Source of the DNA: Desulfobulbales bacterium
GTDB lineage: Bacteria; Desulfobacterota; Desulfobulbia; Desulfobulbales; BM004
Direction: 5' to 3'
Length of the DNA: 64,000 nt
Assembly: GCA_041598875.1 (NCBI GenBank)
Contig: JBFHXP010000001.1
Coordinates: 26,179-90,178 of the forward strand
The position numbers and the translations under genes were made by a program. Within the stretch, counting starts at the first letter, position 1; each line of letters opens with the position of its first letter. Of the stretch, positions 6,668 through 22,995 are shown one piece after another. The notes beneath the pieces are model-generated. The model was not told the origin of the DNA and made no database searches. It saw only the letters and a list, made by a program, of their open reading frames with translations.

Positions 6668-6674
6668 TGGTCCC

Positions 6675-8147
6675 CTATTGAAACATTACATTGGCAAATC
6701 CCAGAAACAACCAAGGGAAAAAGAACAGAACAACGGACATGGCCGCGGTAATCACAGGAGGCAGCCAGCAGAAAATCGGCGCCTCGGCAACCTTGTTTTC
6801 AAACTTCGACTCCTCTTCCGTGCAGAAGAAGGCCTTATAGACAATGGGCAGGAAATAGGCGGCATTCAGGAAAGAACTGACCAGATAAATGACCAGGACC
6901 CAGATCATGTCCGCCTCCATGGCCCCGCGAACCATGAGCAGTTTGCTGATAAGCCCGCCGGCCGGCGGCAGGCCGATAACGCTCAGGGAGCCGACAAAAA
7001 AGGCGATCATGGTGATCGGCATCCGCTTGCCGATGCCGACCATTTCGCTGATGTATTTCTTGCCGGTGGCAACGAAAATTGCGCCAGCGCAGAAGAACAG
7101 GGTGATCTTGCCAAAGGCATGCATTGCGATATGGAGCATGCTGCCGGTGACGCCTAGTTTTGTGGCCAGGCCTGCCCCGAGAATAATATAGGAGAGCTGG
7201 CCGATTGTAGAGAATGCCAGCCGCCGCTTGAGATTGTCCTGGCTCAAGGCAATAAGCGAAGAGACGATTACCGTAAAGCCGGCAATCAGACAGATAAGGG
7301 TGTTGAGGTTGGTCGCGTCCAGAAGATTGATCCCGAAGATGCCGGTTATTACGCGAAGAATGCTGAAGACTCCGACCTTGACCACCGCCACCGCATGAAG
7401 CAGGGCGCTGACCGGGGTCGGGGCCACCATCGCCCCTGGCAGCCAGGAGTGAAAGGGCATCATCCCGGCCTTGGAAAAACCGAACATGAACATCAGCAGC
7501 ACAACGGTAAGAATCGGCTTGGCGGTGTCGGCGGGAAAGATCCCCATGCTGTTAAAATCAAGGGTCCCGGTAAGGGAATAGGTGATCAGCATCGCCGGCA
7601 GGGCCAGGCCAATGGAGGTTGAAAGAAGATAGGTCAGATACTTGCGGCCACCGCCCCGGGCCTCTTCATCCTGGTGGTGGGTGACCAGTGGATAGGTGGA
7701 AAGAGAGAGGATCTCGTAAAAGATATACAGGGTGAAAAGGTTGCCGGAAAAGGCCACTCCCAGGGTTGCGGAAAGGGCCACCGCAAAGCACATGAAATAC
7801 CGGGTCTGGGCATGCTCATCGAGGCCGCGCATGTACCCGATGGAGTATATCGAGGTGACGATCCACAGGGATGAGGCGACCAGGGCAAAGAGCATGCCGA
7901 AACCGTCAACCGTCAGGGTGACCGAGAGTCCCGGCAGGATCCGGCAGATATCGTAGGTATGTGTATTCCCCGCGAGAACCCACTGGGCCATTGAGAGAAC
8001 CAGCCCGAGCTTTATCACCGCGGCGATAAAGGTCCAGCTCTCCCGCAGATTGGGTCGCCTGTCACTCAGGTAGATAAGCGGCACCGCCGCAAGAGAGACG
8101 AGAACCGCCAGGGCTGGGGTAGATGGGATAAAGGGAATCTGATCCAT
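6675..8147 (-). CDS. MrpD/NuoN-like antiporter subunit
   Basis: 490-aa polytopic protein with motifs FHSWLPGAMVAPTPVSALLHA and SQLSYIILG, typical of the NuoL/M/N-MrpD family. Confidence 0.9.
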   Translation of the reverse strand: MDQIPFIPSTPALAVLVSLAAVPLIYLSDRRPNLRESWTFIAAVIKLGLVLSMAQWVLAGNTHTYDICRILPGLSVTLTVDGFGMLFALVASSLWIVTSIYSIGYMRGLDEHAQTRYFMCFAVALSATLGVAFSGNLFTLYIFYEILSLSTYPLVTHHQDEEARGGGRKYLTYLLSTSIGLALPAMLITYSLTGTLDFNSMGIFPADTAKPILTVVLLMFMFGFSKAGMMPFHSWLPGAMVAPTPVSALLHAVAVVKVGVFSILRVITGIFGINLLDATNLNTLICLIAGFTVIVSSLIALSQDNLKRRLAFSTIGQLSYIILGAGLATKLGVTGSMLHIAMHAFGKITLFFCAGAIFVATGKKYISEMVGIGKRMPITMIAFFVGSLSVIGLPPAGGLISKLLMVRGAMEADMIWVLVIYLVSSFLNAAYFLPIVYKAFFCTEEESKFENKVAEAPIFCWLPPVITAAMSVVLFFFPWLFLGFANVMFQ

Positions 8148-8179
8148 AATCTATATTCTAAAGGGAAGGTTAAGGAGCT

Positions 8180-9670
8180 TTATAATCCTGATGGAATTGC
8201 CCACTGTACGATATGGGTGACAATTTCATTGGTATAGAGACCGATAACAACAAGGGTGGCGGCGGTCACAACCATCGGGACAATCATGGTTGCCGGCGCC
8301 TCATCTCTGGGCGGCAGGGCATGATCACCGTGGGCCTCAAAGGTGCCGAAATAGGCAATCTCGATAAGCCGGAAAAAGATGACGGCATTTATCAGACTTG
8401 AAAAGAGCAGGGCCACCACGTAAACCCACTGCCCGGCCTCAATTCCGCCCTGGATAAGATACCATTTACTGAAAAACCCGCAGGTCGGCGGAATACCGAT
8501 AATTGAAAACGCGCCCAGGATGAATACCGCCGAGGTTATCGGCATCCTGCGGAAGACGCCCTCCATGGCGGCAAAAGATGATGTGCCGGTTTTATAGATC
8601 ATGGCGCCCACGGCCATGAACAGACAGAGGGTCATCACCGCGTCACTCAGGATGTGGTAGATGGTGCCGGTAAGGCCGTTGGCATTAGCCAACCATGCCC
8701 CGCCGACCATATACCCAACCTCGGCTACGATAATATAGGTGAGCATCTTTTTCAGATCCCGCTGGGCCAGGGCGGAAATCGAACCAGCGACAATGGCCAG
8801 ACTGGCAAACCAGACAACCAGCTCGTGCCACGGTATGGTCTTAAAAACGTAGTCCACGGAAAATACCGAGAACATCATCCGGACCATGACATAGACGCTG
8901 ACCTTGGTCATAAGAGGGGCAACCAGGCAACTGGTGGTGGTGGAGGCCTGGCTGTAAGCATTGGGCAGCCAGCCGTGCATGGGGAAGAGACCCATTTTGA
9001 TCCAGAAACCCAGAATAATCAGGATAAAGCCGATGCGGATGGTGGCCGATTCATGCATTTCCGCCCGGGAAAGAATGGCAAAGAGATCCGCCATGTTCAG
9101 GGTTCCGGTCTTGATGTAGAGATAGCCGACCCCCAGGAGATATAAGCAGGCGCCGATGGTGCCCAGGATGATGTATTTGAAGGTGGCGTAATAGGCAAGG
9201 CCGCGGCCGCGTGCCAGCAGGGCATAGCTGGACAGGGCGGATATCTCCAGCAGAACATAAAGGTTAAAGGCATCCCCGGTGGCGACCATCCCAAGCAGGC
9301 CGGAGACAAGCAGGCAGTACAGGGTATAATAATGATGAATCCGGTCCGGGATCTCCTGGCGAACCGTCTCTTTTGAGTAGACAGCGGTGAGCAGGGCACA
9401 CCCTGAGACCATGCAGAGCACCAGGGCGCCGAGGTGGTCGACAACCAGCTCGATGCCAAAGGGCGGGGGCCAGTTGCCAAGCCGGTAGCGGATCGATTCA
9501 GTGGTCAGCATGACCTGAACAAGGGTATTCACCGCCGCGAAGAAAGACCCGGCCATTGCCAGCACCAGCAGAACAAAGGCAAGGGTGTCGCGGCGGCCGG
9601 CAAAAAGGCTGATCGCAAAGGCCGCCAGCAAGGGAAAGAGCAGGACAAGAATGGGATAATGTTCAGCCAT
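8180..9670 (-). CDS. MrpD/NuoM-like antiporter subunit
   Basis: 496-aa polytopic protein with motifs MHGWLPNAY and VAEVGYMVGG, in the NuoL/M/N-MrpD family. Confidence 0.9.
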   Translation of the reverse strand: MAEHYPILVLLFPLLAAFAISLFAGRRDTLAFVLLVLAMAGSFFAAVNTLVQVMLTTESIRYRLGNWPPPFGIELVVDHLGALVLCMVSGCALLTAVYSKETVRQEIPDRIHHYYTLYCLLVSGLLGMVATGDAFNLYVLLEISALSSYALLARGRGLAYYATFKYIILGTIGACLYLLGVGYLYIKTGTLNMADLFAILSRAEMHESATIRIGFILIILGFWIKMGLFPMHGWLPNAYSQASTTTSCLVAPLMTKVSVYVMVRMMFSVFSVDYVFKTIPWHELVVWFASLAIVAGSISALAQRDLKKMLTYIIVAEVGYMVGGAWLANANGLTGTIYHILSDAVMTLCLFMAVGAMIYKTGTSSFAAMEGVFRRMPITSAVFILGAFSIIGIPPTCGFFSKWYLIQGGIEAGQWVYVVALLFSSLINAVIFFRLIEIAYFGTFEAHGDHALPPRDEAPATMIVPMVVTAATLVVIGLYTNEIVTHIVQWAIPSGL

Positions 9671-10065
9671 TATTTTTCAATGGTCTCCAGGAGTTCATCT
9701 TCTTCAATGGTGCCATGCACCCGATAGATCTTCTGTAAAACTGCAAGGGCCACACCCAGGGTGGAAACACCGACCACAATGGCGGTCAGCATAAGCACAT
9801 GGGGTAACGGATTGGCATAGAGGGTCGGATCAATAGCCTGATGGGCCACATCGCCATGGCCATGGATGAGAATCGGGATGGAGGCCCCCTTCTTGTGACC
9901 GATGGAGACATAGAAGAGGATGATCGCCGACTGAAAAATCGACATGCCTATCACCTTCTTGAGCAGATTGTTCTTGGCAATCATCCCATAGAGGCCGATG
10001 AGCAAGAGAATCAGGGCAGCCCAGTAGTTATATTTGGCAACGACATCGTGCAATAGATCCTGCAT
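9670..10065 (-). CDS. MrpC/MnhC (NuoK-like) subunit
   Basis: 131 aa with 3 TM helices. The N-terminal segment reads YNYWAALILLLIGLYGMIAKNNLLKKVIGMSIFQSAIILFYV. The stop/start overlaps the next gene. Confidence 0.85.
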   Translation of the reverse strand: MQDLLHDVVAKYNYWAALILLLIGLYGMIAKNNLLKKVIGMSIFQSAIILFYVSIGHKKGASIPILIHGHGDVAHQAIDPTLYANPLPHVLMLTAIVVGVSTLGVALAVLQKIYRVHGTIEEDELLETIEK

Positions 10066-10073
10066 AACGTTCC

Positions 10074-10823
10074 CTAAAGCCCCTCGTCCAGATCCCCGCC
10101 CGAGGCGAGATCAACATAAAGTGAAAACATGATCGCCATAACGGTGATGGCAACGCCGACCTCAACCCCCAGCATGCCATGGGAGTGGGCCTCCAACTCG
10201 GTAATTCCCAGGAGGGTGCTCCAGGAGGCATAGGCAAGAAAGTTACCGCCCAGCAGAAGGCAAACGGCGCCGATGCCCACATAGATGAGCACACCGATAC
10301 CGCTTAAGCGCAGTACGGTTTTTTCCTTGAGGCGTTTAAGCACCATCTTGAGATCATAAGATATGGCCATGAGGATGAAACTGGCCCCTAAAATGACCCC
10401 GCCCTGAAAACCGCCGCCCGGACTGTGATGGCCGTGGGCAACCACATAGAGGGCAAAAATCTGCATCACCGGCACCAGAATACGGGACGCTGCCTGCAGA
10501 ATAATATCCGCATCCTTCCGGCTGGGCCGGGGCCTGGCAATTTTTTCCTTTTTGCGGTGGGTCCGGCGCAACACGGTGAGCACGGTAATGCCGGCGCAGA
10601 AAATAACAATGGTTTCAAACATGGTGTCATACCCGCGATAATCGGCCAGCACCGCAGTAACCATGTTGGGAACAGAGGTCTCCTCCATTGTTTTTTCAAT
10701 AAAATGAGGCGAGAGGTAGACGCTGGCCGGCGAATGGGGATCTCCCCAGTCAGGGAAATCACCCGCAGCCACGAGCAGCAGCACACCGATGGCGCATATT
10801 ATGAGAAAGGCGATTTGTTTCAA
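10074..10823 (-). CDS. MrpB/MnhB-domain subunit (MbhE/F-like fusion)
   Basis: Contains VTAVLADYRGYDTMFETIVIF and HGHHSPGGGFQGGVILGA, both hallmark MnhB-domain motifs. Confidence 0.85.
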   Translation of the reverse strand: MKQIAFLIICAIGVLLLVAAGDFPDWGDPHSPASVYLSPHFIEKTMEETSVPNMVTAVLADYRGYDTMFETIVIFCAGITVLTVLRRTHRKKEKIARPRPSRKDADIILQAASRILVPVMQIFALYVVAHGHHSPGGGFQGGVILGASFILMAISYDLKMVLKRLKEKTVLRLSGIGVLIYVGIGAVCLLLGGNFLAYASWSTLLGITELEAHSHGMLGVEVGVAITVMAIMFSLYVDLASGGDLDEGL

Positions 10824-10859
10824 AATGTTACCCTATCAAATGTGATCAATTCCAGTCCA

Positions 10860-11123
10860 TCAGTCCCGGGATCTCCGTTTTATGTGCAGGGCCGTGCCCA
10901 CCAGGAGCACGGTGCTCACTCCGGCGCCAACCGCGGCCTCGGTAAAGGCGACATCCACGGCCAGCATTTCAGTCCACATCAGACACATGAGAAAGCTGTA
11001 CGCCCCGCCGACAACCGCGCAGCTTACCAGGTCCCTGATGGTCAATGCCGCCACGGCGCAGAGAATGACCATAGCGAGAATCAACACATCGAATTGCCAT
11101 AACAGGCTGGTGTCCCAACTCAT
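10860..11123 (-). CDS. DUF4040 / MbhD-like subunit (equivalent of the MrpA C-terminal domain)
   Basis: 87 aa with 3 TM helices and the motif VDVAFTEAAVGAGVSTVLL. It sits between the mrpG and mrpB homologs, as in Mbh/Mbx membrane arms. Confidence 0.7.
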   Translation of the reverse strand: MSWDTSLLWQFDVLILAMVILCAVAALTIRDLVSCAVVGGAYSFLMCLMWTEMLAVDVAFTEAAVGAGVSTVLLVGTALHIKRRSRD

Positions 11124-11132
11124 TTTTTTCCC

Positions 11133-11504
11133 CTAGACTTGTTTTTCTTCCTTCCGGCGCTCTATGTCGAAACAGGCGTCACATTCTTGTTTGCGTTTTG
11201 TCCAGCATTTGACCTGGGCCTCAAAGCCGGCATCCATGATCGCGTGGGTGGCTGTGGGGCTGGCGATAAAAATAAAAACAATGATAAAGAGAATCTTGAT
11301 CGCAACAAGGCTCGTGCCAACCGTGAAATGGTTCAGGTGATAGAGGGCCAGCCCAGCGAGAAGCAGCACCGAAGAAAGGGTGTCGCCCTTGCCCGCGGCG
11401 TGCATGCGGGAGTAAAAGTCCGGAAAGCGGATGAGGCCGACCGAAGTGCCAAGGTAAAAAAAGAGGCCGAGACTTACGAGAAAGATGACTGCGATGTTAA
11501 GCAT
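11133..11504 (-). CDS. MrpG/MnhG subunit
   Basis: GLIRFPDFYSRMHAAGKGDTL is the signature MnhG motif. Confidence 0.85.
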   Translation of the reverse strand: MLNIAVIFLVSLGLFFYLGTSVGLIRFPDFYSRMHAAGKGDTLSSVLLLAGLALYHLNHFTVGTSLVAIKILFIIVFIFIASPTATHAIMDAGFEAQVKCWTKRKQECDACFDIERRKEEKQV

Positions 11505-11827
11505 TACTGTGCCGCCTCCGGTTGATTTTCCGTATCCACTTGTTTGCGGCGCTGGAAAAAGCGGGCCGCGGCCAACGAGGCGATGAAGTTCAGGAGGGCA
11601 TAGGCAATGGCGATATCGACAAACATGTCCACCTGATGATACAGGGTGCCGATGATAATGATCATGACCGTGGTCTTGGTGCCGATGACATTGACCCCCA
11701 GGACGCGGTCAATAACCGTGGGCCCATAGATCGCCCGGTATAGGGGCATGAACATGAAAAGCAGAAGAAGTACTCCGGCCAGGATAAAAAAGAAATCCAT
11801 GAAATCGCCAGACGCCGTTGCTTGCAT
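11504..11827 (-). CDS. MrpF/MnhF subunit
   Basis: The YRAIYGPTVIDRVLGVNVIGTKT motif, 3 TM helices, and overlapping start/stop codons with both neighbours. Confidence 0.85.
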   Translation of the reverse strand: MQATASGDFMDFFFILAGVLLLLFMFMPLYRAIYGPTVIDRVLGVNVIGTKTTVMIIIIGTLYHQVDMFVDIAIAYALLNFIASLAAARFFQRRKQVDTENQPEAAQ

Positions 11828-12333
11828 TATCTGTGCCCCCCCTCAAAGACCCAGGCCACCCGCCTCTCCATCTCGCTCATGTTTTCACTTGCAAGGTCCC
11901 CGGCAGCCTGACCACTGATCGCGTGAATATAAAAAAGATCGTCATGGATACGGATGGTCACCGTGCCGGGGGTCAGGGTGATGGAGTTGGCAAGCACGAA
12001 TTTGGCAAAATCGGTTTTGAGCTTTGTCCGGAAGGTGAAAATATAGGGATCGATTTCCCGCCGCATGATCCGCGGCGAGATCGCCAGGGCGATAACATGA
12101 AAATTGGCCACCCCTATCTGCCAGAAGAGCCAGCCGCAATAAGGGATAAAACGAAACGCCTCCTGAAGCCGCGCTGCCAGCCCCTTTTTCCGTTCCTGGA
12201 AAAAAAGATCCGCGGAGAGCAGGGTCACGATCAGGCAGGAGACCCCCCCCAGCGCCAGGTGGAACAGGTCGAATTTACCGGACAACATGATCCAGGCGAC
12301 AAAAAAGATGATAAAGGTTGCTACTGAAAACAT
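11827..12333 (-). CDS. MrpE/MnhE subunit
   Basis: LANSITLTPGTVTI motif and N-terminal WIMLSG helix. First gene of the Mrp-like block. Confidence 0.85.
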   Translation of the reverse strand: MFSVATFIIFFVAWIMLSGKFDLFHLALGGVSCLIVTLLSADLFFQERKKGLAARLQEAFRFIPYCGWLFWQIGVANFHVIALAISPRIMRREIDPYIFTFRTKLKTDFAKFVLANSITLTPGTVTIRIHDDLFYIHAISGQAAGDLASENMSEMERRVAWVFEGGHR

Positions 12334-12410
12334 AGGCCACGCGGAAGTGAGGGTTTTATTTTCCTGTCATGATGAGCGTATCTATCGATTTCCTATGACT
12401 AAAATCCCAA

Positions 12411-13271
12411 TCAGTCAAGTATTATCTCTCTTTTCCGCTCTCCCTCATAGATAGAGGCGGTTTTGGCGACAATAAAATTGTTCTCAGGATTTTCCGCATC
12501 AGAGTCAACATTGATCCCGCCGATATACACCGCCTTGATCCCGCTTTCCCGGAGCAGGGAGTCAAAAACCCGGGAGCCAAGCTCAAGAAGCTTATCTGCG
12601 GCCGCTGCCATGGGATAGGGATTAGAGGATATCTCTTCAAGATAGGGCAGCAGCGCCTTTTCCACCTCATTCATCTCAAAATCACTGAGGTCGCGAAGAA
12701 CCTTTCCCGCCTTGCGATCCTTGTGCCGGGCAAGGACCCCGGCAAGAAGGCCGCATGACGAACCGGGTTTCTGCATCCCATACCTGTCGGTCAACCCAAG
12801 GGTCTCTTGCGAGTCACAGCCGACATGGGTCGCGTGCACCACCACGGTCCATTGGTTCTCTTTGACTTCCGGGATATGGTGCGATGGCGGCCCGAGGCTC
12901 TCCACGCTGCGGCCGGCCGGATAGGCGCCAAAGGCGTTGAGATCAAACCAGCCGGAACTCTTGCCAACCCCAGCCAGCAAGGAACCGAGCCGATCCTGGT
13001 TGTCATCTCGACATAAGCATTTTATACCCAGGGCGTTTTCCCCCAGACTGATTCCCTCATTATCAAGGGTTCGCTGGAGAAGAGAAACAAAGTCCGCATA
13101 GGTATACAACGCCCCTTCGCCTGAAAAGGCGTCCTTGATTTTTATTGCCGGATTTTCTCTGTTTTTTTGCATTCCACACCCCGTAATAGTGTATTCACTT
13201 TCTTTGCGGCTCACTGACTGCAATTCAAGGCTGCAAGCCGCATTCTTTTTTAACTCATTGTTATTTTGCAA
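12411..13271 (-). CDS. Soluble Cys/His-rich protein of unknown function (possible metalloenzyme)
   Basis: No TM helices and no family recognised with confidence. Conserved-looking motifs are IKCLCRDD, VVVHATHVGCD and GSSCGLL. The likely real start is M34 (ATG at 13172), because the first 33 codons are AT-rich and atypical. Confidence 0.6.
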   Translation of the reverse strand: MQNNNELKKNAACSLELQSVSRKESEYTITGCGMQKNRENPAIKIKDAFSGEGALYTYADFVSLLQRTLDNEGISLGENALGIKCLCRDDNQDRLGSLLAGVGKSSGWFDLNAFGAYPAGRSVESLGPPSHHIPEVKENQWTVVVHATHVGCDSQETLGLTDRYGMQKPGSSCGLLAGVLARHKDRKAGKVLRDLSDFEMNEVEKALLPYLEEISSNPYPMAAAADKLLELGSRVFDSLLRESGIKAVYIGGINVDSDAENPENNFIVAKTASIYEGERKREIILD

Positions 13272-13298
13272 CTATTCTGCTGCGCACCCTAAACTGGG

Positions 13299-14789
13299 TT
13301 AAACTGCAGGCAGATAGACCTGCATGCCCATGAGCGGCCAGACGAACTGGACCGCAATCCAGGTAATAACCATCAGTATTATGCTTGCCGGAACTCCGTA
13401 CATAAAGAATTCACCGGTGGTGAACTGCTTGGAGTTGTAGGCAATGGCATTGGGCGCCGCGCCAACCAGCAGCAGAAAGGGCATACCCGCCACCACCAGG
13501 GAGGAGAAGAGAATTACCTCGCCGGCAACGCCAAGATAGGGAGCGATAACCAGGGCCACCGGCAGGGAGATGGCAATGGCCGCCACGTTCATGATGAAGT
13601 TGGTCATCATCATGACGAAAAAGGCCATGCCGAGGATAAAAACAATTGCCGGGGCGCTCTGGAACAGGGTGAGCCAGTTGACCGCCATCCACTTGGCGGC
13701 CCCGGTCTCCCAGAGGCAGAAGCCAATGGACATGGCGCCGGCAAAGAGCAGAATAATGTTCCAGGGGATCTCTTCCAGGTCATTGATATCCAGGATATTG
13801 ACAATAAAGAACAGGATGGTGGAGCAGAGAAGGATACCTGTCTTGTCAAGAGGTTCGAGTGCGGGAACAAAGGCCTTGGCCGAGATGACCACGATGGTGG
13901 AGACAACGATAAAGGTGGCCATGATCTCTTTTTTGGACCAGGAGCCAAGCTCCCTGTACATCCTCTTGGCCTTTTCCTTCAGCCCTGGGATCGATTCCCT
14001 CTCAGGCTTGCAGACAAACATGAAAAATCCCCACAGGGCAAAGGTCATGCCCCAGCCGATGGGGAACATGTAATAGGTGAGTTCGAAAAAGCTGATATCG
14101 ACATTGGTGATATCCTTGTAGAAACCAAGGGCCACGGCGCCGCGGGCCGCGCCCAGCAGGGTGATGATACTGCCGGCGCCGGCCACGTAGGCCATGCCCA
14201 TGAACAACCCCTTGCCGAACTTGGTGGGCCCGGTTTCTTCGGAATAGAGGGCGTAAATCGCCATCAGCAAAGGAAACATGGTGGCAGCGACCGCGGTGTG
14301 GGCCATGATGTGGGTGAGCGCCGCGGTCAGCACAAAACAGCCGAGATAGATCATTGAGGTCTTCTCGCCGACAATGGAGAGCATTTTATAGGCAATGCGT
14401 TTGGTCAAGCCGGTCTTGGTGAAGACCATGCCGATAACAATGGAGCCGAAAATAAAGAGAACCGAGGGATCCATGAAATCCTTGAAGGCAACCTTGGCCG
14501 GGCGGATGAAAAACAGGGCCTGGACCATGCCGATGGTCAGGCTGGTGACACCGATCGGCACCACCTCGAAAACCCACCAGGTGGCGGCAAGAAGAAAGAG
14601 GGCGATGGCCCCCTTGCCTTCCATGGTCAGGAGAAAATGCTCACCCATGGGATCAACCGCATCGGGCCACAGGGGTGAATAATAGACAACGCAAAACAGC
14701 ACAACTCCCGTTACCAGGAAGATGGCCCGCTTCAAATCAAAGGGCGTCTTTTCCATAGCCACCCCCACTTCTGTCTGTGATTTTGTCAT
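13299..14789 (-). CDS. DASS/SLC13 family anion:cation symporter
   Basis: 496-aa polytopic protein. N-terminal segment ATWWVFEVVPIGVTSL and C-terminal segment GAAPNAIAYNS match the hairpin-loop motifs typical of SLC13/DASS permeases. Confidence 0.85.
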   Translation of the reverse strand: MTKSQTEVGVAMEKTPFDLKRAIFLVTGVVLFCVVYYSPLWPDAVDPMGEHFLLTMEGKGAIALFLLAATWWVFEVVPIGVTSLTIGMVQALFFIRPAKVAFKDFMDPSVLFIFGSIVIGMVFTKTGLTKRIAYKMLSIVGEKTSMIYLGCFVLTAALTHIMAHTAVAATMFPLLMAIYALYSEETGPTKFGKGLFMGMAYVAGAGSIITLLGAARGAVALGFYKDITNVDISFFELTYYMFPIGWGMTFALWGFFMFVCKPERESIPGLKEKAKRMYRELGSWSKKEIMATFIVVSTIVVISAKAFVPALEPLDKTGILLCSTILFFIVNILDINDLEEIPWNIILLFAGAMSIGFCLWETGAAKWMAVNWLTLFQSAPAIVFILGMAFFVMMMTNFIMNVAAIAISLPVALVIAPYLGVAGEVILFSSLVVAGMPFLLLVGAAPNAIAYNSKQFTTGEFFMYGVPASIILMVITWIAVQFVWPLMGMQVYLPAV

Positions 14790-14837
14790 GGCATCTACAC
14801 CTCATTCTTATAGAAATAATTTGTTGCAATTAGTGAG

Positions 14838-15380
14838 TTACAGCCTGCACCGGGTGCTGATTCCCTTGAATATCTCCTCGAGCCGGATGACACCGACAAC
14901 GGCCTCTTCCTCAAGAACCGGCAAGATAACCTCATTGGTGCTGAGCATGATGGACAGGGCCTTCAAGAGAGGGTCGCCCCCCTTGACAATGTGCCGTATC
15001 GGAGTCAAAAACGTCTTGATCGCCTTGCCGGACTGCCGGGAACAGCCCTCAAAAAAGGAGTCCTCCCACATGATTGTCAGATTGGGAAAATCAGTCCCCT
15101 TTCCTTCAAACTTTTTGACCTTTGCAAGTTCGACCAGCCGGGAGTCAAGCCCCATCAGTATGCTCTGCAGATTGATACGGCCGACCAGCTTGTTCTGATC
15201 ATTAATAACCAAGATCTCGGAATACCTGAGGCGCTCGTTTTCACCGCAGGTGTATGCCATGATCACCTGCACGGCATCGTGGATCGTCTGGTTCTCGTTT
15301 AAATGGGGGTACCTCTCCAGGGGAATAGTATAACGCCTGACAACCGGATTATCTGCGCTCACAAGCAACCTCCTTCTCAA
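14838..15380 (-). CDS. CBS domain pair protein
   Basis: 180 aa with two CBS-like segments (..ILVINDQNKLVGRINLQSIL.. and ..VILPVLEEEAVVGVIRLEEIF..). No other domain. Confidence 0.8.
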   Translation of the reverse strand: MRRRLLVSADNPVVRRYTIPLERYPHLNENQTIHDAVQVIMAYTCGENERLRYSEILVINDQNKLVGRINLQSILMGLDSRLVELAKVKKFEGKGTDFPNLTIMWEDSFFEGCSRQSGKAIKTFLTPIRHIVKGGDPLLKALSIMLSTNEVILPVLEEEAVVGVIRLEEIFKGISTRCRL

Positions 15381-15529: not shown

Positions 15530-15970
15530 CTACCAGCTCTTGCTTTTGAGTATCTTCTTCACTTCTTCTTCACGCCCCTTTTCCACAACCACCATCCGCT
15601 TGTTCTTGGCCTGGCTGATCTTCTCGAGCAGCACATTCAAGTCAACCGGCTTTTCAAGGAAATCCTCGGCGCCGAGCTTCATCGCCTCGATGCCGGTTTT
15701 TACCGTGGCATGGCCGGTGAGCATGATAATCTCGAGATCAGGGCGGCTTTCCTTGATCCGCCTCAGGGTCTCAATGCCGTCGATTCCCGGCATTGCGAGG
15801 TCGACAACAATGGCGTCAAAATTCTTCTCCTTGGCCTGCTCAATGGCATCCTCTCCGCTGGTCACCGCGTTTACCTTGAGGCCACGGGTTTCCAGGCGCT
15901 GGGAAAGCGCATCCAAAAATTGCTCCTCATCATCAACCAGCAATACACTGGCCTCAATTTTTTCAGCCAT
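15530..15970 (-). CDS. Stand-alone response-regulator receiver
   Basis: Canonical receiver residues: LLVDDEE, VVDLAMPGIDG, MLTGHAT, LEKPVD. No output domain. Confidence 0.9.
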   Translation of the reverse strand: MAEKIEASVLLVDDEEQFLDALSQRLETRGLKVNAVTSGEDAIEQAKEKNFDAIVVDLAMPGIDGIETLRRIKESRPDLEIIMLTGHATVKTGIEAMKLGAEDFLEKPVDLNVLLEKISQAKNKRMVVVEKGREEEVKKILKSKSW

Positions 15971-15979
15971 TACAGTCTC

Positions 15980-16447
15980 CTATTTAGTATCTTCTTTTTT
16001 ATCGAGAAAATTCCGGGCCATATCCGGTTCACCGGCCTCGGCAAAGGCCGCGGCAGCCATGGTGTCCTGAATTTTATCCCGATACGCGTCTTTTATGGAT
16101 TTGACCAGATGATCGATATCAACCGGTTTTTTGATATAATCATATATGCCGATCCGCCGGGCCTCATCCTCATCCCGGTCCGACCCATGCCCGGTCAGAA
16201 TAATCACCCTGATGTCAGGAAATTTTTTCTTGACCCGCCGCAAGACCTCGATGCCGTCGATGCCGGGCATCTTAAGATCGAGCACCATCACGTCCGGCTC
16301 CCTGTCGTCGACAAAACTCAAGGCCTGCTCGCCGTCAAAGACGGTCTCGTTTTCCAGGTCCCGCATCTGCAGCCGCTCAGACAGGGTCTTAACAAACTCC
16401 TGCTCATCATCAACAAGCAATACCTTCATCTTAGCCATGTTTTCCAC
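15980..16447 (-). CDS. Stand-alone receiver with a C-terminal FAEAGE-type tail motif
   Basis: Canonical receiver residues: LLVDDEQ, VLDLKMPGIDG, ILTGHGS, IKKPVD. The tail reads IQDTMAAAAFAEAGEPDMARNFL. The start is likely M4 or M7. Confidence 0.9.
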   Translation of the reverse strand: MENMAKMKVLLVDDEQEFVKTLSERLQMRDLENETVFDGEQALSFVDDREPDVMVLDLKMPGIDGIEVLRRVKKKFPDIRVIILTGHGSDRDEDEARRIGIYDYIKKPVDIDHLVKSIKDAYRDKIQDTMAAAAFAEAGEPDMARNFLDKKEDTK

Positions 16448-16979
16448 CCGTTTGCTCGTCAGGATTCTTTTCTTTTGACCGAAGACCGTCGTCGTCCCGG
16501 TCCATTATTTCCCTGGCGGAGTCATACTCCCCGGCCTGGGCAAAGGTGGCAGCCATCATTGCCCCTTCAAATATATCCAGCAATGACCGTTTCCGGCCCT
16601 TCTTCTTCAGCGCCTTCCGCCGCTCGACCGCTTCCTGGATTTTCTCCCGCAGAGTACGGATATCAAAAGGCACCATCAGTTCATCCGAGGCACCTTCACG
16701 CATACCCTCCATGGCATACGGCACACTCTCCGGGCTGCTCAAGAGGATTATCTCAATCCCCGGCTCTTCCTTTTTCAGGCTCTTGAGAAGCCTGATCGAA
16801 TCAGCGCCCTGATCCCGGATATCAAGAACCGCCACATCAATTTTCCGGCCCGAACTGATTTCAAGCGCTTCAAACTGATTGGCGGCGCTGATTATTTTAC
16901 CCTGGACAAGACCTATCCTGCTGACCAGATTCTGGAGAAACTGGGAATCGGCCATTACGATTAAGATTAAAGGGGACAT
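16431..16979 (-). CDS. Degenerate receiver-domain protein with a C-terminal FAEAGE-type tail motif
   Basis: Receiver fold with phospho-Asp context VAVLDIRD and ILLSS. The acidic pair is weakened (MAD) and the conserved Lys is replaced (MVPFD). The tail reads IFEGAMMAATFAQAGEYDSAREIM. Confidence 0.8.
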   Translation of the reverse strand: MSPLILIVMADSQFLQNLVSRIGLVQGKIISAANQFEALEISSGRKIDVAVLDIRDQGADSIRLLKSLKKEEPGIEIILLSSPESVPYAMEGMREGASDELMVPFDIRTLREKIQEAVERRKALKKKGRKRSLLDIFEGAMMAATFAQAGEYDSAREIMDRDDDGLRSKEKNPDEQTGGKHG

Positions 16980-17044
16980 GACACAGACCTTCTTCGTGTT
17001 GGTCCTCTTCCATGACTATACCCACCACACCGACCGGAAACCAC

Positions 17045-17332
17045 TCAGCAATCAATGGTCCCAAAGGCAAGATGCGCACCCGGAATCCCCAGCTCACTGA
17101 AGTCGCTGCGAGAAGAACCGCGGCCCTTCTCCCTGGGCTCAATCATGTTCAACGCCTCATTATAGAGTCCGGACTCGGCAAAGGTCACTGCCGTGAAAAT
17201 CTTATCGAACCAGGTAATGTTCGCGGTTCGCCGGACCTCCGGCATGATCTCCCTGGCGGTGTCCCACTCTCCTGCCTCGGCAAAAGTCACGGCCATCATC
17301 ATATCCTGGATTTTTTTTAAGGTCTTTTTCAT
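17045..17332 (-). CDS. 95-aa protein made of two FAEAGE-type motif copies
   Basis: First ORF downstream of the sigma54 promoter. It contains IQDMMMAVTFAEAGEWDTAREIM and WFDKIFTAVTFAESGLYNEALNMI. The motif DNA is about 75% identical to the copy in the next gene. Confidence 0.6.
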   Translation of the reverse strand: MKKTLKKIQDMMMAVTFAEAGEWDTAREIMPEVRRTANITWFDKIFTAVTFAESGLYNEALNMIEPREKGRGSSRSDFSELGIPGAHLAFGTIDC

Positions 17333-17398
17333 GGCAGGCCTCCTGTGGTGTACTGTGTACTCGGAACCATCATTCCTCTTGACTTCACTATAGTACTA

Positions 17399-17413
17399 GC
17401 AAAAGGTGTGCCA
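17399..17413 (-). promoter_or_regulatory. Sigma54 (RpoN) -24/-12 promoter
   Basis: The minus strand reads TGGCACACCTTTTGC, a near-perfect match to TGGCAC-N5-TTGC. It lies 66 nt upstream of the 95-aa ORF start. An AT-rich tract just upstream (17414-17450) could be an IHF site. The bEBP gene is adjacent. Confidence 0.75.
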
Positions 17414-17787: not shown

Positions 17788-19158
17788 TCAGGTTTTTTCA
17801 TCCCGAAAGGAGTGCAGGTCAATCCCATGTCGATTGATCTTGTCATACAGGCTTTTTCTCGAAATCATCAGGGCCTTATGGGTGGCGATGACCTGGCCCT
17901 TGTGCGCACGCAGCGCGGCAATAATATGATTCTTTTCCGCCTCATCCACCGCCTGCCGCAGAGGGACCGGCTGACCCGCGCGGGACTCCGGCCCTGTTGC
18001 CGAACCTGTTTCATCTGCCCCGGAAAGCGCATCGCGGTAAACACACAGCCTTCTTATATGGTTTTTAAACTCCCGGACATTTCCCGGCCACTCCCGTCTG
18101 CACAAACGATTCACGGACACGGAGTCAAAAGAGGCCGGATCCATGCCGTACTCCTTGCAGAAATGATGCAACAGAAGGGGTATGTCCGACAGCCGCTCCC
18201 GCAGGGGCGGGACTGTAATCGGCAGCACATTCAGCCGGAAATAGAGATCCTGGCGGAAACGCCCGGCCCCTATCTCGCTGGCAAGAACACTGTTTGTCGC
18301 CGACAGGATCCGCGCCCGCACCGGGGTGGGGGTATTTGCCCCAAGGCGGGTGACCGCCCGATCCTCCAGGACCCGGAGGAGCTTTGCCTGCAGGCCCACG
18401 GGCATGCTGCATATCTCATCAAGAAAAATCGTGCCTTTGCCGGCATATTCAAACTTACCCATCTTGGCCAGCCCGGCCCCGGTGAAGGCCCCTTTTTCAT
18501 GGCCGAACAGCTCCGCCTCGAGCATTTCCGTGGGTATTGCCCCCATGTTGACGGCAACAAAGGGCCCTTCACTCCGTGTTGACAGATTATGAATGGCCCG
18601 GGCCACCAGCTCCTTGCCGGTACCGGTCTCACCGGAAATCAGGACCGGGTCATCTTCCCGTGCCACGATCTCGATGGTGTCATAAAGACGCCGCATCAAA
18701 TGGTGGCCGCCGACAAGACCGTTAAAGCTGAAACGCGCCCCCCGGACCCGTTCCAGCTGGCGGCAGAGCCCCCGGTTATCGAGAACCAGCCGCATCTTTT
18801 CCACTGCCCGGGAAAGGGCGCCTAAAAGGATCTCCTCGTCCACCGGCTTTTCGAGAAAATCGTATGCCCCGTTCTTCATCGCCTTGACCGCCATATCGAC
18901 ATCACCGTGGCCGGTCACCATGATCACCGGCAGATCACGATCCTGGACCCTGGTCCGCTGTAAAAATTCCAGTCCATCAATCAGGGGCATCTTGATGTCG
19001 GCGATCACCGCGAGATAGACGCCGGAGGAAAGCGAGGCCAGGGCCTCGGCCGGGGTGCTGAAACTGTCGACCTCATACCCGTGCATGGTGAGGGTCTGAT
19101 GTATGGCAATGAGCAGATACGTGTCATCGTCGACCACCAGTATTTTTCCGATTTTCAT
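17788..19158 (-). CDS. NtrC-family sigma54-dependent response regulator (REC-AAA+-Fis HTH)
   Basis: Receiver (ILVVDDD, IADIKMP), AAA+ Walker A GETGTGKE, GAFTGA loop, and a C-terminal HTH. The start is chosen at MKIGKIL (19158), giving a 7-nt gap after the kinase gene. Confidence 0.9.
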   Translation of the reverse strand: MKIGKILVVDDDTYLLIAIHQTLTMHGYEVDSFSTPAEALASLSSGVYLAVIADIKMPLIDGLEFLQRTRVQDRDLPVIMVTGHGDVDMAVKAMKNGAYDFLEKPVDEEILLGALSRAVEKMRLVLDNRGLCRQLERVRGARFSFNGLVGGHHLMRRLYDTIEIVAREDDPVLISGETGTGKELVARAIHNLSTRSEGPFVAVNMGAIPTEMLEAELFGHEKGAFTGAGLAKMGKFEYAGKGTIFLDEICSMPVGLQAKLLRVLEDRAVTRLGANTPTPVRARILSATNSVLASEIGAGRFRQDLYFRLNVLPITVPPLRERLSDIPLLLHHFCKEYGMDPASFDSVSVNRLCRREWPGNVREFKNHIRRLCVYRDALSGADETGSATGPESRAGQPVPLRQAVDEAEKNHIIAALRAHKGQVIATHKALMISRKSLYDKINRHGIDLHSFRDEKT

Positions 19159-19165
19159 ACATCCA

Positions 19166-20455
19166 TTACCTGTGTGCATCTGCGTCCTCTTCGCAACGCG
19201 GGGGCAGGTGAATCAAAAAACAGGCCCCTTCCCCCGGCGCACTTTCCACTTTGATAAAACCACCGCTTTCCCGGACTATCCGGTCAACGATGGACAGGCC
19301 CAGGCCCATTCCGGTCCCCACCTCCCGGGTGGTGAAAAAGGGATCAAAGATCCTGGTCAGCACATCAGGAGAAATTCCCGTGCCGGTATCCCGAATCGCG
19401 GCAACAACATACTCTTTTTCCTGGAGGCTCTCGGGCTCAATACTCTTTATTGTACTGGTTTTTATCGTCAAACGCGGGGAGTCGGTTTCCCCCATTGACT
19501 GGACCGCATTCTGAATGACATTCAAAAAGACCTGCTCAAACCTGACCTCCTGGCCGATGACCAGGGGAACAGAGCGGTCAAGGTCCAGCTCCACCTCAAT
19601 ATCCGAAAGGGCAAGCTGGCTGTCGAGAAACTTGAGAATATTGATTAAAATTGAATTAATTTCCACGGGGCAGGAGTCGGAGACCTCTTTACGGGCAAAA
19701 CTTTTCAGACTCTTGATAATTGATGAGGCCTTTTTTATCCGGTCGATAATGATCTGGAGATTTTCCTCCAACAGCTCTCTGTTAATGGTCGGCTCTTCTA
19801 AGGCTTTCAGACAGTTGCGCGAAAAGAGAAGCATCGCGTTCAAGGGCTGGGTCAATTCATGGCCTATCCCGGCCGCCATCTCGCCAAGGCTGGCCAGCCG
19901 GCCGGAGTGAATCAACTGCTCCTGGGCCTCTCGAATCCTGGACATCATCTTATGGGCATCGCTCATGTCCCTGGCAATCATCATGTGAAGCACCCGGCCC
20001 GATTCCGTGACAAAGGTCGAGCCATTGATGCTTACCCGAATCCTCTCCCCCCCACGGGCCTTGAATTCCGTTTCCCAGTTCTTGAACTCACCGGCGGAAA
20101 TACGTGCCTTGAGGGAGCGGCACGCCCCCTCATCCATGAGTGCATCCAGGGAGACCCTGCCATAATCTTCTGCCGGAAAATCAAGCAGGTGCAAAAACTC
20201 CTCGTTTGAGTTGGCAATAACAAAGTCCTTTGTCATGACAAAAAAGAGGTCTGAAAGACTTGCAAGGATCTTCTCTGAAAAGACCTTTTCCGTCTGGACC
20301 TCTTCATGTTTCTTCAGAATCCGAACGACCAGATCCTGTTTCTGCCTTTCAAGCAGTTCAACCAGTTTTTCGTTCGGCTCCATTCCCCTCGCACCCGCCC
20401 TTGACCATACACCTGAAAATTCACCCGGAGTACCCAGACCCCGACCCTGTGTCAC
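19166..20455 (-). CDS. PAS-domain sensor histidine kinase (cytoplasmic)
   Basis: H-box MAAGIGHELTQPLN, N-box NVIQNAVQS, G-boxes DTGTGI and GTGMGLGLS. A PAS-like region lies N-terminal and there are no TM helices. An alternative start is at 20383 (MEPNEK). Confidence 0.9.
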   Translation of the reverse strand: MTQGRGLGTPGEFSGVWSRAGARGMEPNEKLVELLERQKQDLVVRILKKHEEVQTEKVFSEKILASLSDLFFVMTKDFVIANSNEEFLHLLDFPAEDYGRVSLDALMDEGACRSLKARISAGEFKNWETEFKARGGERIRVSINGSTFVTESGRVLHMMIARDMSDAHKMMSRIREAQEQLIHSGRLASLGEMAAGIGHELTQPLNAMLLFSRNCLKALEEPTINRELLEENLQIIIDRIKKASSIIKSLKSFARKEVSDSCPVEINSILINILKFLDSQLALSDIEVELDLDRSVPLVIGQEVRFEQVFLNVIQNAVQSMGETDSPRLTIKTSTIKSIEPESLQEKEYVVAAIRDTGTGISPDVLTRIFDPFFTTREVGTGMGLGLSIVDRIVRESGGFIKVESAPGEGACFLIHLPPRCEEDADAHR

Positions 20456-20711: not shown

Positions 20712-21299
20712 ATGAAAAAGCAGACCTTAAACATAGATCAAGCGGCCTCCCTGTGCGGGGTATCTCCCACCCGCGTCAAGGCATGGATTGATAAAAAGGA
20801 ACTCCGGGCAGAGGAAAACCATGGCCGGGAGCAATGGATCAGGCATACCGACCTCATTGATTTTCTTGTTAAATTCAACATGCCGATCCCTGACGCGCTC
20901 CTGCCCTATAAGGCCAGAAAAATCCTGTTCATCTATAACGATGATTCGGGCGGCCGGTTGTTTATGCGTTTTTTAATCCGCCTCCTCGGTCATTTAAAAA
21001 AAACACAGCAGACCTTTGTTGCTGACCACATCCCCTATGGGCCGGATGCAAAAATAAAAGTGATGGTCTTCAAACCAGACCTTGTGCTGCTTGACATGAC
21101 TGAGAGCGATCATGACGCGATTTCCATGGGCCTGCAGATCAAGAACGCCACTGAGTTCAGCGCGGTAAAGCTCATTGCCGTCACCGCTGAAACCATTTTT
21201 GAAGAGCAGAGAGTATCAGCACTGAAAAACGGGATTGACACCATTGTGCCAGAATCGGTGAATATCCCTGTTTTTGCTGAAGAACTTAATTTCCTGTGA
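20712..21299 (+). CDS. Excisionase/MerR-type HTH fused to a receiver-like domain
   Basis: The N-terminus LNIDQAASLCGVSPTRVKAWIDKKEL is an HTH_17-type motif. The C-terminal receiver-like region has ILFIYNDD, LVLLDM and LIAVTAE. Confidence 0.7.
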   Translation: MKKQTLNIDQAASLCGVSPTRVKAWIDKKELRAEENHGREQWIRHTDLIDFLVKFNMPIPDALLPYKARKILFIYNDDSGGRLFMRFLIRLLGHLKKTQQTFVADHIPYGPDAKIKVMVFKPDLVLLDMTESDHDAISMGLQIKNATEFSAVKLIAVTAETIFEEQRVSALKNGIDTIVPESVNIPVFAEELNFL

Positions 21300-21348: not shown

Positions 21349-22995
21349 ATGCTGAAAGACAGAACACATTACTCACGACTGAAAAAAAGGTTTTCCATCA
21401 CCTTTATCCTGGTCGCCCTGGTGCCGTTTTTCCTTATCAGCTGGAGCTCCTCGCATTTTTATCAGATGTCATCCCTGGAAAACACCACCAGGGGCCTGAA
21501 GGGAACCGTGGAGAACAGAAAAGAGGTCATTAACTTTTTTCTTACTGACCAGAAGAACCTCTTATTGCAGTTGATTCACCTCTACTCATACGAGGTTTTC
21601 AAAGACCAGGGAGAGTTGGAAAGAATATTTACCGCGGTCGCTCCGAGCGGAATTGTCGATCTGGGATTGATTGATGCCAGCGGCCAGCACGTGACATATG
21701 TCGGGCCCTACCGACAGAAACTGATCGATAAGAACTATAAGGACGCCGACTGGTTTCATGAGGTGATGATCAACGGCTGCCATATCAGCGATGTCTTTCT
21801 CGGCTACCGCGAGGTGCCCCACTTTGTGGTGGCAGTGGCAGACCCTCTGAAAAAGTGGGTCCTGCGGGCCACGGTGAATTCGGAATTCTTTGACGGCCTC
21901 CTGCGCAACGCCCAGCTCGGTGAGAAAGGCGATGCCTTTATCGTCAACCGGGAGGGAAAATTCCAAACAGCCAGCCGGCTCCAGGTTAACACCCTGAACC
22001 TGAAAGAAAGGACGCTGCTTAATTACCATGAAGGGACCGAAGTGCATCAGATTGATAATTTCCTCTATGTGACCAGCTGGCTCAAGAACGGCGAATGGCT
22101 CCTGCTGGTCAAGCTCCAGACCTCGAGCGTCTTGGAGGTTTTTTATCATGCCCGCAACATCGACTTTCTCTCCATTCTGGCCGCCGCCCTGTTAATCATT
22201 GTTGTCGCGACCCTTACCGTGAATCAGATGGTAAACAAAATTGAGCGGGCCGACCGCGAAAAGGCAAGCCTGGACAGCCAGATGATCCAGGTGGAAAAAA
22301 TGGCTTCCCTGGGCAGAATGGCTGCCGGGGTGGCCCATGAGGTGAACAACCCCCTGCAGCTGATCACCGATCAGTCCGGGTGGATCGGTGACCTTCTCGA
22401 TGAGGAAGATCCCGGAAAAATCCGCCACATGGATGAATACCGCCAGGCCCTGGCTAAAATCAAGGCCCATGTGGCCCGGGCAAGCGGCGTCACCCACAGA
22501 TTGTTGGGATTTTCACGGAAAATGGAGGCAAAAAAGGCAGAGGCGCATATCAATTTTCTTATCGAAGAGGTTCTCTCCTTTCTTGAAAACGAGGCGGCCG
22601 GCCACGATATCACCATAACTACCCACCTGCAAAAGGATATCCCGGCGATCATGACCGACGCCACCCAGATCCAGCAGGTGTTTTTAAATATTCTCAACAA
22701 CAGCATCGATGCCATTGGGAAAAAGGGGGCCATAGAGATCACCACCCTGGTCGACGGAAAGGGCATATGTATCACTATTGCCGATACCGGTCCGGGAATC
22801 AAACCCGGGATCGCACATCATATCTTTGACCCCTTTTTCACCACCAAGGAACCGGGCAAGGGAACCGGACTCGGGTTGTCCATCTGCTACAACATTATCC
22901 AGTCGCTGGGAGGCACGATTGAAGTCGGTAACAGGCAAGAGGGAGGAGCGGTCTTTTCGATAAAACTGCCGATTACAACCGGGGAAACCAGCTGA
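21349..22995 (+). CDS. Cache-type periplasmic sensor histidine kinase
   Basis: Two TM helices flank a ~250-aa extracytoplasmic domain (SDVFLGYREVPHFVVAV..WVLRATV). H-box AAGVAHEVNNPL, N-box LNILNNSIDA, G-boxes DTGPGI and GTGLGLS. Confidence 0.9.
   Translation: MLKDRTHYSRLKKRFSITFILVALVPFFLISWSSSHFYQMSSLENTTRGLKGTVENRKEVINFFLTDQKNLLLQLIHLYSYEVFKDQGELERIFTAVAPSGIVDLGLIDASGQHVTYVGPYRQKLIDKNYKDADWFHEVMINGCHISDVFLGYREVPHFVVAVADPLKKWVLRATVNSEFFDGLLRNAQLGEKGDAFIVNREGKFQTASRLQVNTLNLKERTLLNYHEGTEVHQIDNFLYVTSWLKNGEWLLLVKLQTSSVLEVFYHARNIDFLSILAAALLIIVVATLTVNQMVNKIERADREKASLDSQMIQVEKMASLGRMAAGVAHEVNNPLQLITDQSGWIGDLLDEEDPGKIRHMDEYRQALAKIKAHVARASGVTHRLLGFSRKMEAKKAEAHINFLIEEVLSFLENEAAGHDITITTHLQKDIPAIMTDATQIQQVFLNILNNSIDAIGKKGAIEITTLVDGKGICITIADTGPGIKPGIAHHIFDPFFTTKEPGKGTGLGLSICYNIIQSLGGTIEVGNRQEGGAVFSIKLPITTGETS

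Follow-up and report, generated by a model that had tools for sequence, protein, structure and literature searches.

A conserved hairpin, predicted to be TPR-like, on receivers and small proteins encoded in sigma-54 transporter operons

A module of about 30 residues, predicted to fold as a TPR-like hairpin, is encoded four times in three consecutive genes of a 64,000-nucleotide stretch of DNA from a Desulfobulbales bacterium (contig JBFHXP010000001.1; this whole stretch is called the window below). Two copies lie in a protein of 95 residues, and one each forms the tail of a pseudo-receiver and of a canonical receiver. The module is conserved, sits in sigma-54 transporter operons and is usually present in several copies per operon. 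It is very probably a protein-protein docking module.

Four copies of one module

The four peptides had been listed in an earlier note on this DNA, made from the letters alone, and translation of the minus strand returns each of them as written there: copy 1 (IQDMMMAVTFAEAGEWDTAREIM, 17243-17311) and copy 2 (WFDKIFTAVTFAESGLYNEALNMI, 17141-17212) of the 95-residue protein, the tail of the pseudo-receiver ((D)IFEGAMMAATFAQAGEYDSAREIM, 16503-16577, of the 'FAQAGE' type) and the tail of the canonical receiver (IQDTMAAAAFAEAGEPDMARNFL, 16004-16072, of the 'AAAFAEAGE' type). A hidden Markov model (HMM) of the motif, made of 189 segments from other genomes and no sequence of the window, was searched against the six-frame translation of the window. 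Exactly four sites were found in the 64 kb, with envelopes at 17234-17329, 17129-17224, 16491-16589 and 15992-16087 and independent E-values (i-E) of 2.6e-19, 9.3e-9, 6.4e-13 and 1.8e-12, respectively; the next best match stands at 0.31. Since the independent model recovers only these sites, far above the next match, the peptides are genuine copies of one module and not a product of chance, as the note had held. It had also proposed a scan of this kind with a record of the carrier domains, which gives the four sites of the window and many carriers elsewhere.

At the DNA level, the shared core first proposed, C[TG]GGCAAAGG, has no match as a literal string. The corrected form, CT[CG]GGCAAA[AG]G, is present in all four copies, once in each, and nowhere else in the window. 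An identity of about 75% over 60 nucleotides, also reported earlier, is found between copy 1 and the pseudo-receiver tail (45 of 60 nucleotides in the best stretch); the remaining pairs are 53-70% identical. This identity lies in codon positions 1 and 2 (0.79), not in position 3 (0.50); hence, the DNA likeness reflects selection on the peptide and not a recent duplication. The duplicated module is real, but its DNA similarity is not a sign of a recent event. The duplication is ancient, because the four positions are separately conserved, with their own signatures, in Desulfobulbaceae and Nitrospirae.

The hairpin proteins of the window

All three genes are on the minus strand. The 95-residue protein (17045-17332), recognized by the HMM, is preceded by an AGGAGG ribosome-binding site before its ATG. 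Its two hairpins are 34 residues apart, measured from F to F, and are followed by a conserved C-terminal segment, LGLxGxxLxYGxV. This segment (17045-17120) is common to the two-copy proteins and not found in the single-copy ones; it is modeled by AlphaFold2 (AF2) with a predicted local distance difference test (pLDDT) of ~50 and short strand-like elements.

The second protein (16431-16979, 182 residues) carries one C-terminal hairpin behind a receiver domain (Pfam Response_reg, 46.8 bits). It had been called a degenerate receiver, and its key positions indeed read M, A, D, S, V where a canonical receiver has D, D, D, T, K: only the phospho-acceptor Asp is retained, and M, A, S and V replace the acidic pair, Thr and Lys. 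This degeneracy is common to the whole orthologous class. From these residues, the protein is classed as a pseudo-receiver, which matches the receiver fold and lacks the residue set of a phosphorylatable receiver.

The third protein (15980-16447) is a canonical single-domain receiver (Response_reg 98.8 bits, cut-off 30.2), also with one C-terminal hairpin. D13, D14, D57, T85 and K107, the residues of a phosphorylatable receiver, are all present. It counts 155 residues from a GTG at 16447; an identical database protein (P0292) starts three codons later, at the ATG at 16438, and has 152 residues. The upstream pseudo-receiver gene, with its stop codon at 16431-16433, runs past this ATG, which suggests translational coupling. 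The next gene (15530-15970, minus) encodes another canonical single-domain receiver of 146 residues (Response_reg 115.3 bits). The motif HMM gives no match there, in agreement with the earlier view that this third receiver of the row is hairpin-free.

Predicted structure

The AF2 models present the unit as a complete TPR-like hairpin, in which a long helix A ends with F-A-E-A-G and, after a tight turn, a short helix B starts with [FWH]-[DE]-T-A-R. In the 95-residue protein, helices are predicted at residues 2-19, 23-29, 41-53 and 57-64, with a pLDDT of 83-91 in the hairpins and a predicted TM-score (pTM) of 0.38. The model of the canonical receiver has a pTM of 0.80: alpha5 and helix A form one helix (108-134), followed by a turn and a second helix (138-150). 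Confidence drops towards the hairpin tip, which is typical of modeled segments that need a partner.

These models correct the earlier description, a half-TPR-like unit appended after alpha5, in two respects. A TPR-type helix-turn-helix is predicted, not as a half unit but as helix A together with a short helix B; the hairpin is C-terminal, but not a separate appendage, as helix A appears to continue alpha5 seamlessly. The structure closest to the receiver model is that of the NtrC1 receiver (1zy2_A; 131 columns, root-mean-square deviation 1.2 Å, TM 0.82); 1ny5 and 4l4u are matched as well.

Conservation and carriers

The core of the hairpin is A-x-[TA]-F-A-E-A-G-E-[FWH]-[DE]-T-A-R, within a unit of ~30 residues with the consensus [FLI]-[ED]-x2-[MF]-x-A-[AIV]-[TA]-F-A-E-A-G-E-[FWHY]-[DE]-T-A-R-E-[ILM]-[LM]. 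The earlier note had made its proposal depend on conservation of F-A-E-A-G, and this core is strongly conserved in the homologues. In copies outside the selection by the search pattern, A(-3) is kept in 96%, A(+9) in 97%, A(+3) in 68%, E(+5) in 69% and [ED](+7) in 85%; the frequencies of F, A(+1), E/Q(+2) and G(+4), at 89-99%, are inflated, as the copies were anchored on exactly these residues. Among 1.84 billion cluster representatives, a motif-only profile matches 1,290 clusters (50% identity) at E<=1e-3 and 180 at E<=1e-10, with one to four copies per protein. The family is found mainly in Nitrospirota and Thermodesulfobacteriota.

Genome loci were obtained by a degenerate-DNA scan of species-representative genomes with a pattern for one variant of the motif (FAEAGExDTAR), which gave at least 119 loci, cited here by L numbers; all locus counts, whether of clusters, carriers, taxa or context, rest on the matches listed by that scan. 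About 56 of the listed loci belong to Nitrospirota or Thermodesulfovibrionia and about 39 to Thermodesulfobacteriota or 'Deltaproteobacteria'. Magnetococcales, unclassified Proteobacteria/Pseudomonadota metagenome-assembled genomes (MAGs) and scattered MAGs of other phyla are among the other ~24. Only one isolate is among them, Hydrosulfovibrio ferrireducens CB1MN (L049).

The arrangement of the window is not restricted to this genome. The order of two-copy protein, pseudo-receiver with tail, receiver with tail, (kinase), tail-less receiver and transporter recurs in metagenome contigs of Desulfobulbaceae and in MAGs of Nitrospirae, and the tail-less third receiver is likewise present in L002 and L005. 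Across both groups, each position keeps its own signature: TFAEAGEW..P for copy 1, FAESGL/FAE.G.HEEA for copy 2, AATFAQAGE for the pseudo-receiver tail and AAAFAEAGE for the receiver tail. Homologues of the 95-residue protein have ~96 residues and are 44-52% identical, with TFAEAGEW.TA and FAESG invariant. The pseudo-receiver orthologues in L002-L006 retain AATFAQ.GEFDSA, and the receiver orthologues are 72-83% identical, with A129, F132, A133, E134, E137 and A141 of the tail invariant.

The 235 hairpin-bearing open reading frames (ORFs) of the listed loci, found by local HMM and ORF analysis, were grouped into carrier classes by clustering the proteins with the motif masked, since the motif dominates the small ones. 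Stand-alone proteins of 55-66 residues carry one N-terminal copy; two-copy proteins of 95-110 residues, as well as three- and four-copy proteins, form further classes. In 75 Usp-like proteins, the copy is N-terminal or inserted at residues 41-73, in ~37 receivers it is C-terminal, and in 13 small proteins with two transmembrane segments, encoded directly upstream of TauE, it is again N-terminal. A PPDK_N (PEP-utilising) protein has a copy inserted at 192-218 (L068:2659-3969). The module is hence not specific to receivers: it occurs more often alone or on Usp-like proteins.

Besides these classes, diverged forms (AALAEGG) were seen between both domains of REC-REC fusion proteins; P0295, P0320 and P0404 are listed with the PPDK_N case. 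Many single-copy small proteins (P0036-P0048; L053:3690-3905; L066:3874-4053) end in a basic tail with an R-[AI]-[SP]-x-P-like element, as in KTMRASSPPRQ, RKTARISAPGAKR and RKELRAPGIKR. The element may represent another short motif, for example, a modification or recognition site.

Promoter and operon context

A putative sigma-54 (-24/-12) promoter, TGGCACACCTTTTGCT (17398-17413, minus), lies 65 nt upstream of the ATG of the 95-residue gene. It is the sole zero-mismatch match to TGGCAC-N5-TTGCW in the window, has the sequence expected of a sigma-54 promoter and is close to the gene of an activator. Directly upstream, also on the minus strand, Pfam identifies an NtrC-type REC-AAA+-HTH sigma-54 activator (17788-19179) and a PAS histidine kinase (19166-20455). 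An equivalent sigma-54 element precedes the orthologous gene in L002 and L005. More generally, such an element is found within 290 nt upstream of 30 of 118 hairpin gene clusters, and these are 30 of all 35 strict matches in 1.66 Mb, both strands included. A kinase and/or a sigma-54 activator is encoded upstream in 34 of the 38 clusters for which at least 4 kb of upstream sequence is visible, and a TauE or DASS permease downstream in 46 of 60 hairpin clusters. Counted per cluster, the hairpins are one in 26 cases, two in 45, three in 18 and four in 13, so that 76 of 102 clusters carry two to four.

Downstream of the receivers, the window encodes a CBS-pair protein (14838-15380), a DASS anion:Na+ symporter (13299-14789) and an LCIB-like protein with a beta-carbonic-anhydrase fold (12411-13271), all on the minus strand and recognized by Pfam/NCBIfam models. 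These genes (12411-15380) are assigned to the same transcription unit as the hairpin genes. The CBS-DASS-LCIB order after the receivers is also found in L002-L004, L054 and L075.

Two types of cassettes can be distinguished. Type I consists of a small hairpin protein, a Usp-like hairpin protein, a small membrane protein (sometimes with a hairpin), TauE and a tandem Usp. Type II is the receiver type of the window, ending either in CBS-DASS-LCIB or in TauE with an unknown protein and a PPDK-like protein. Operons with hairpins but without a single-domain receiver are the majority among the listed loci.

Receiver-type cassettes elsewhere contain an additional soluble protein of 225 residues ('x225', L002:6869-7546 and equivalents), which resembles the DHp/catalytic core of ZraS/AtoS-type kinases (NCBIfam E ~3e-8, far below the cut-off). 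A small Nitro_FeMo-Co-like protein is encoded beside a PAS-sigma-54 activator at L002:4219-4560 and L005:5962-6285; the window has a REC-type activator in place of the PAS-sigma-54 activator of these cassettes. Complete type-I cassettes, including the sigma-54 activator, are also present on contigs binned as Gaiellales or Thermoleophilia (Actinomycetota; L038, L067, L093, L100 and L124). To our knowledge, this phylum lacks sigma-54, and mis-binning or horizontal transfer is therefore suggested.

In the further surroundings, a dCache kinase (21349-22995) and an HTH_17 protein (20712-21299) are encoded divergently. Within 4609-14789 (minus), the DASS and LCIB-like genes are followed by a set for an Mrp-type multisubunit cation/proton antiporter: MnhE, MrpF, MnhG, MnhB, a 4L-like subunit and three Proton_antipo_M subunits. 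An LCIB-type carbonic anhydrase beside PF00361 membrane subunits recalls the vectorial CO2-hydration systems of the DAB or Cup-like kind; from this likeness, the operon may serve inorganic-carbon or ion uptake.

Relation to known families

In the scans of the window proteins, no Pfam or NCBIfam model covers the hairpin, and no TPR match appears at E<=1. The same libraries give no family for the motif in representatives of the 57-59-residue single-copy proteins, the two- and three-copy proteins, the Usp-like fusion and the membrane fusion. The earlier note had known of no described domain with this signature and had named a Pfam match as the test; only sub-threshold matches to TPR and PPR were found. 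On the homologues, TPR_4 reaches 23.2 bits (cut-off 27), TPR_14 22.6 (23.5), TPR_6 22.8 (26.3) and PPR 16.5 (25), the period being 34 and not 35, and a few database homologues carry a precomputed PF07721.

Searches for structures point in the same direction. A Foldseek search of the 95-residue model against the PDB gave nothing significant (best E 1.2, TM ~0.3); its top matches, nearly all TPR/PPR proteins, serve only as a hint of TPR-like geometry at the local level. Designed PPR proteins of the PDB were matched several times, though weakly, by the profile of the two-copy family, one example being the stretch FAEAGEWDTAREIMPE...ITW; a synthetic PPR-DYW protein has a summed E of 9e-9 with this profile, yet each single stretch has an i-E>=1.6. 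With the single-motif profile, no PDB chain was found to carry the motif, and only a chance match of 14 residues to a CopG antitoxin appeared (E 4.1). A full-text literature search returned nothing relevant on 'FAEAGE' or on the combination of TauE, sigma-54 and universal stress protein. As no curated model, solved structure or paper describing it was found, the hairpin is best regarded as a new family that uses an interaction module of a known kind in an unusual, single-hairpin manner.

The closest known systems are the TPR and PPR repeats (Pfam clan TPR; PF07721 TPR_4, PF13428 TPR_14, PF01535 PPR). The same pattern of small and aromatic residues is recognizable ('FAEAGEWDTAREIM' vs. 'YAKAGRLEEALELF' or 'YYKQGDYDEAIEYY'), the repeats of the two-copy protein are 34 residues apart, as in TPR, and weak matches exist in both sequence and fold. 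In its predicted helix-turn-helix of about 34 residues, the window hairpin corresponds to a TPR unit. However, three or more tandem repeats forming a right-handed superhelix are not present in the window, which has one pair and two singletons; since the profile thresholds are not reached either, the hairpin is not filed as a member of the TPR family. It is used singly, in pairs or on variable linkers instead of in a contiguous solenoid of three or more, its helix B is short, and the charged or polar residues E, E, D/E, T and R are conserved besides the structural ones.

Other systems offer parallels for single aspects. In the receivers of NtrC1 and DctD (1zy2, 1ny5 and 4l4u), alpha5 likewise runs on as a long helix beyond the domain, judging from the model, and this extended helix mediates phosphorylation-sensitive dimerisation. 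The window receiver, on the contrary, has no AAA+ or DNA-binding domain, and its helix ends in a hairpin that is also found on non-receiver proteins. Further parallels are Sda, the antikinase of KinA, and PspA, the anti-activator of PspF, which is encoded first in its sigma-54 operon. Both are small and largely helical, are encoded together with the regulated system or at its head, and work by binding the kinase or the activator. Hairpin proteins of 55-100 residues occupy the same genomic position; however, no sequence similarity to Sda or PspA was detected, the PDB profile searches giving only PPR/TPR and chance matches, and hairpins occur in addition as fusions with receivers, Usp-like domains and membrane proteins. 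The docking peptides of CheY-type systems (FliM N-terminus, CheZ C-terminus and CheA P2) represent the same idea of a short shared element competing for one surface in a phosphorylation-dependent manner, with the difference that the hairpin sits on the receivers themselves too and is folded, not a single short helix.

Possible function

The hairpin is borne by mutually unrelated carriers within one type of operon, which speaks for an interaction tag rather than a part of one domain. The reading that we prefer, at slightly less than an even chance with its docking role included, is an assembly of hairpins with one another. A lone TPR-like hairpin exposes a hydrophobic face, so that hairpins would pack against each other, either by TPR-like stacking or as a four-helix bundle, and the four positions with their own conserved signatures are consistent with four non-equivalent sites of a single assembly. 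The usual number of two to four hairpins per operon likewise favors this reading. In the window, the kinase and the NtrC-type activator encoded next to it would turn on the promoter at 17398-17413, and the first three products, i.e., the free two-hairpin protein, the pseudo-receiver and the phosphorylatable receiver, would then display hairpins. The receiver hairpin would sit at the tip of the extended alpha5, whose packing changes on phosphorylation in receivers of the NtrC1/DctD type. With the two-copy protein as a scaffold for the packed hairpins, a hetero-oligomeric complex of receiver and pseudo-receiver could form and shift its composition with phosphorylation; this complex may adjust the CBS-DASS transport module of the same operon or act back on the kinase or activator. 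Where the hairpin is fused to the membrane protein, the latter could anchor the assembly at the transporter.

Several points weigh against such an assembly. The AF2 model of the two-copy protein, with its low pTM of 0.38, does not confidently predict even an intramolecular packing of hairpins. A single hairpin is present in 26 of the 102 clusters, although many of these are of the Usp-like type, which could homodimerise. In multi-copy Usp-like proteins, variable and probably disordered linkers of 38-50+ residues separate the copies, an arrangement that resembles a contiguous TPR stack less than it does multivalent attachment to some external, oligomeric partner. A partner without a hairpin could equally well have its interface at the conserved charged residues (E, E, D/E and R). 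Finally, because the loci (at least 119) were drawn with a pattern for one variant, the context statistics describe a sample.

The main alternative, already put forward in the earlier note, is a docking peptide for a shared partner that is itself hairpin-free; all copies would bind one common surface, either of the histidine kinase or of the sigma-54 activator. It is a real if lesser possibility, nearly as likely as the hairpin-hairpin assembly. The hairpin would act as an Sda-like antikinase or a receiver tether on the kinase or as a PspA-like anti-activator encoded first in the operon that it regulates, and the free one- and two-copy proteins would be competitors or adaptors in a feedback on the operon's own expression. 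A kinase and/or activator is indeed the most constant neighbor of the hairpin genes (the 34 of 38 clusters above), and these genes come first behind the sigma-54 promoter. Two unrelated transporter families, TauE and DASS, accompany the hairpin operons, which argues against the transporter as the common partner. One to four hairpins on flexible linkers would suit multivalent binding to dimeric kinases or hexameric AAA+ activators, and the conserved acidic and basic residues suggest a specific interface. On the other hand, the regulatory domains of the activators differ (REC in the window, L007 and L009; PAS in L002 and L005), as do the sensors of the kinases; therefore, a common target would have to lie in the AAA+ core or in the DHp/CA core. 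Moreover, such a partner leaves the cross-phylum conservation of four non-equivalent subtypes unexplained, for which the assembly of hairpins offers places.

It is improbable that the hairpin is a degron or an adaptor-binding tag for regulated proteolysis by a receiver-controlled Lon. A Lon with a receiver inserted near its N-terminus (TIGR00763 lon, 723 bits) is encoded at most some hundreds of bases from the genes of small hairpin proteins in 24 of the 119 listed loci (L009:3179-5179; L022, L029, L030, L053, L066, L085, L088, L104, L120, L127 and others), even between two hairpin genes of one operon in L053, L066 and L085, and most hairpins sit at an N- or C-terminus, as is usual for degrons. 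But the other 95 loci have no such Lon in their 8-kb tile, the window as a whole has none, neither the cassette of the window nor the orthologous receiver-type cassettes contain a Lon gene, internal hairpins exist too (the Usp-like proteins and the PPDK_N protein above), and the hairpin is predicted to be a well-folded element and not a disordered tail. Far less probable still, and strongly disfavored, is the absence of any shared function, be it that a generic TPR-like or Ala-rich helix arose independently or serves as a structural cap, or that the small proteins are precursors of ribosomally synthesised and post-translationally modified peptides (RiPPs) with a conserved leader. The motif is Ala-rich and does match generic TPR/PPR models weakly, and proteins of 55-65 residues with a conserved N-terminus and a variable C-terminus recall RiPP precursors. 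The E-values, however, are far beyond chance, with no further matches in 64 kb, non-structural residues (E, E, [DE], T and R) are conserved as well, and the linkage to one type of operon is tight across phyla. No peptide-modifying enzyme was found among the families recognized in the gene maps and Pfam scans of the neighborhoods, and a leader role is ruled out by the presence of the same module at receiver C-termini. Metal binding by the E-x-x-E of FAEAGE was considered and rejected: copy 2 (FAESGL) lacks the second Glu, and neither His nor Cys is available as a ligand.

A more far-reaching form, which we consider rather doubtful, would make the hairpin a self-recognising 'address tag' that joins receivers, pseudo-receivers, Usp-like nucleotide sensors and a small membrane subunit on TauE/DASS transporters; its subtypes would encode the pairing, and a receiver-controlled Lon would prune the complex in some lineages.

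Biological significance

Little is understood of the ways in which single-domain response regulators and pseudo-receivers find their targets, and the hairpin is a conserved, easily recognized tag on them. The same tag is found on Usp-like proteins, on a transporter-associated membrane protein and on hundreds of orphan small proteins in environmentally important anaerobes. Its carriers are encoded at the head of sigma-54-controlled anion-transporter operons in Nitrospirota/Thermodesulfovibrionia, Desulfobulbia and their relatives. The definition of the family provides an annotation for ~1,300 protein clusters that are currently without any. Tag and partner together give a concrete handle on the post-transcriptional control of these operons, for which the cultured carrier H. 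ferrireducens CB1MN is an experimental entry point. If true, the address-tag reading would represent a new wiring of single-domain response regulators to transport and would give a function to many orphan small proteins of sulfur-cycling Nitrospirota and Thermodesulfobacteriota.

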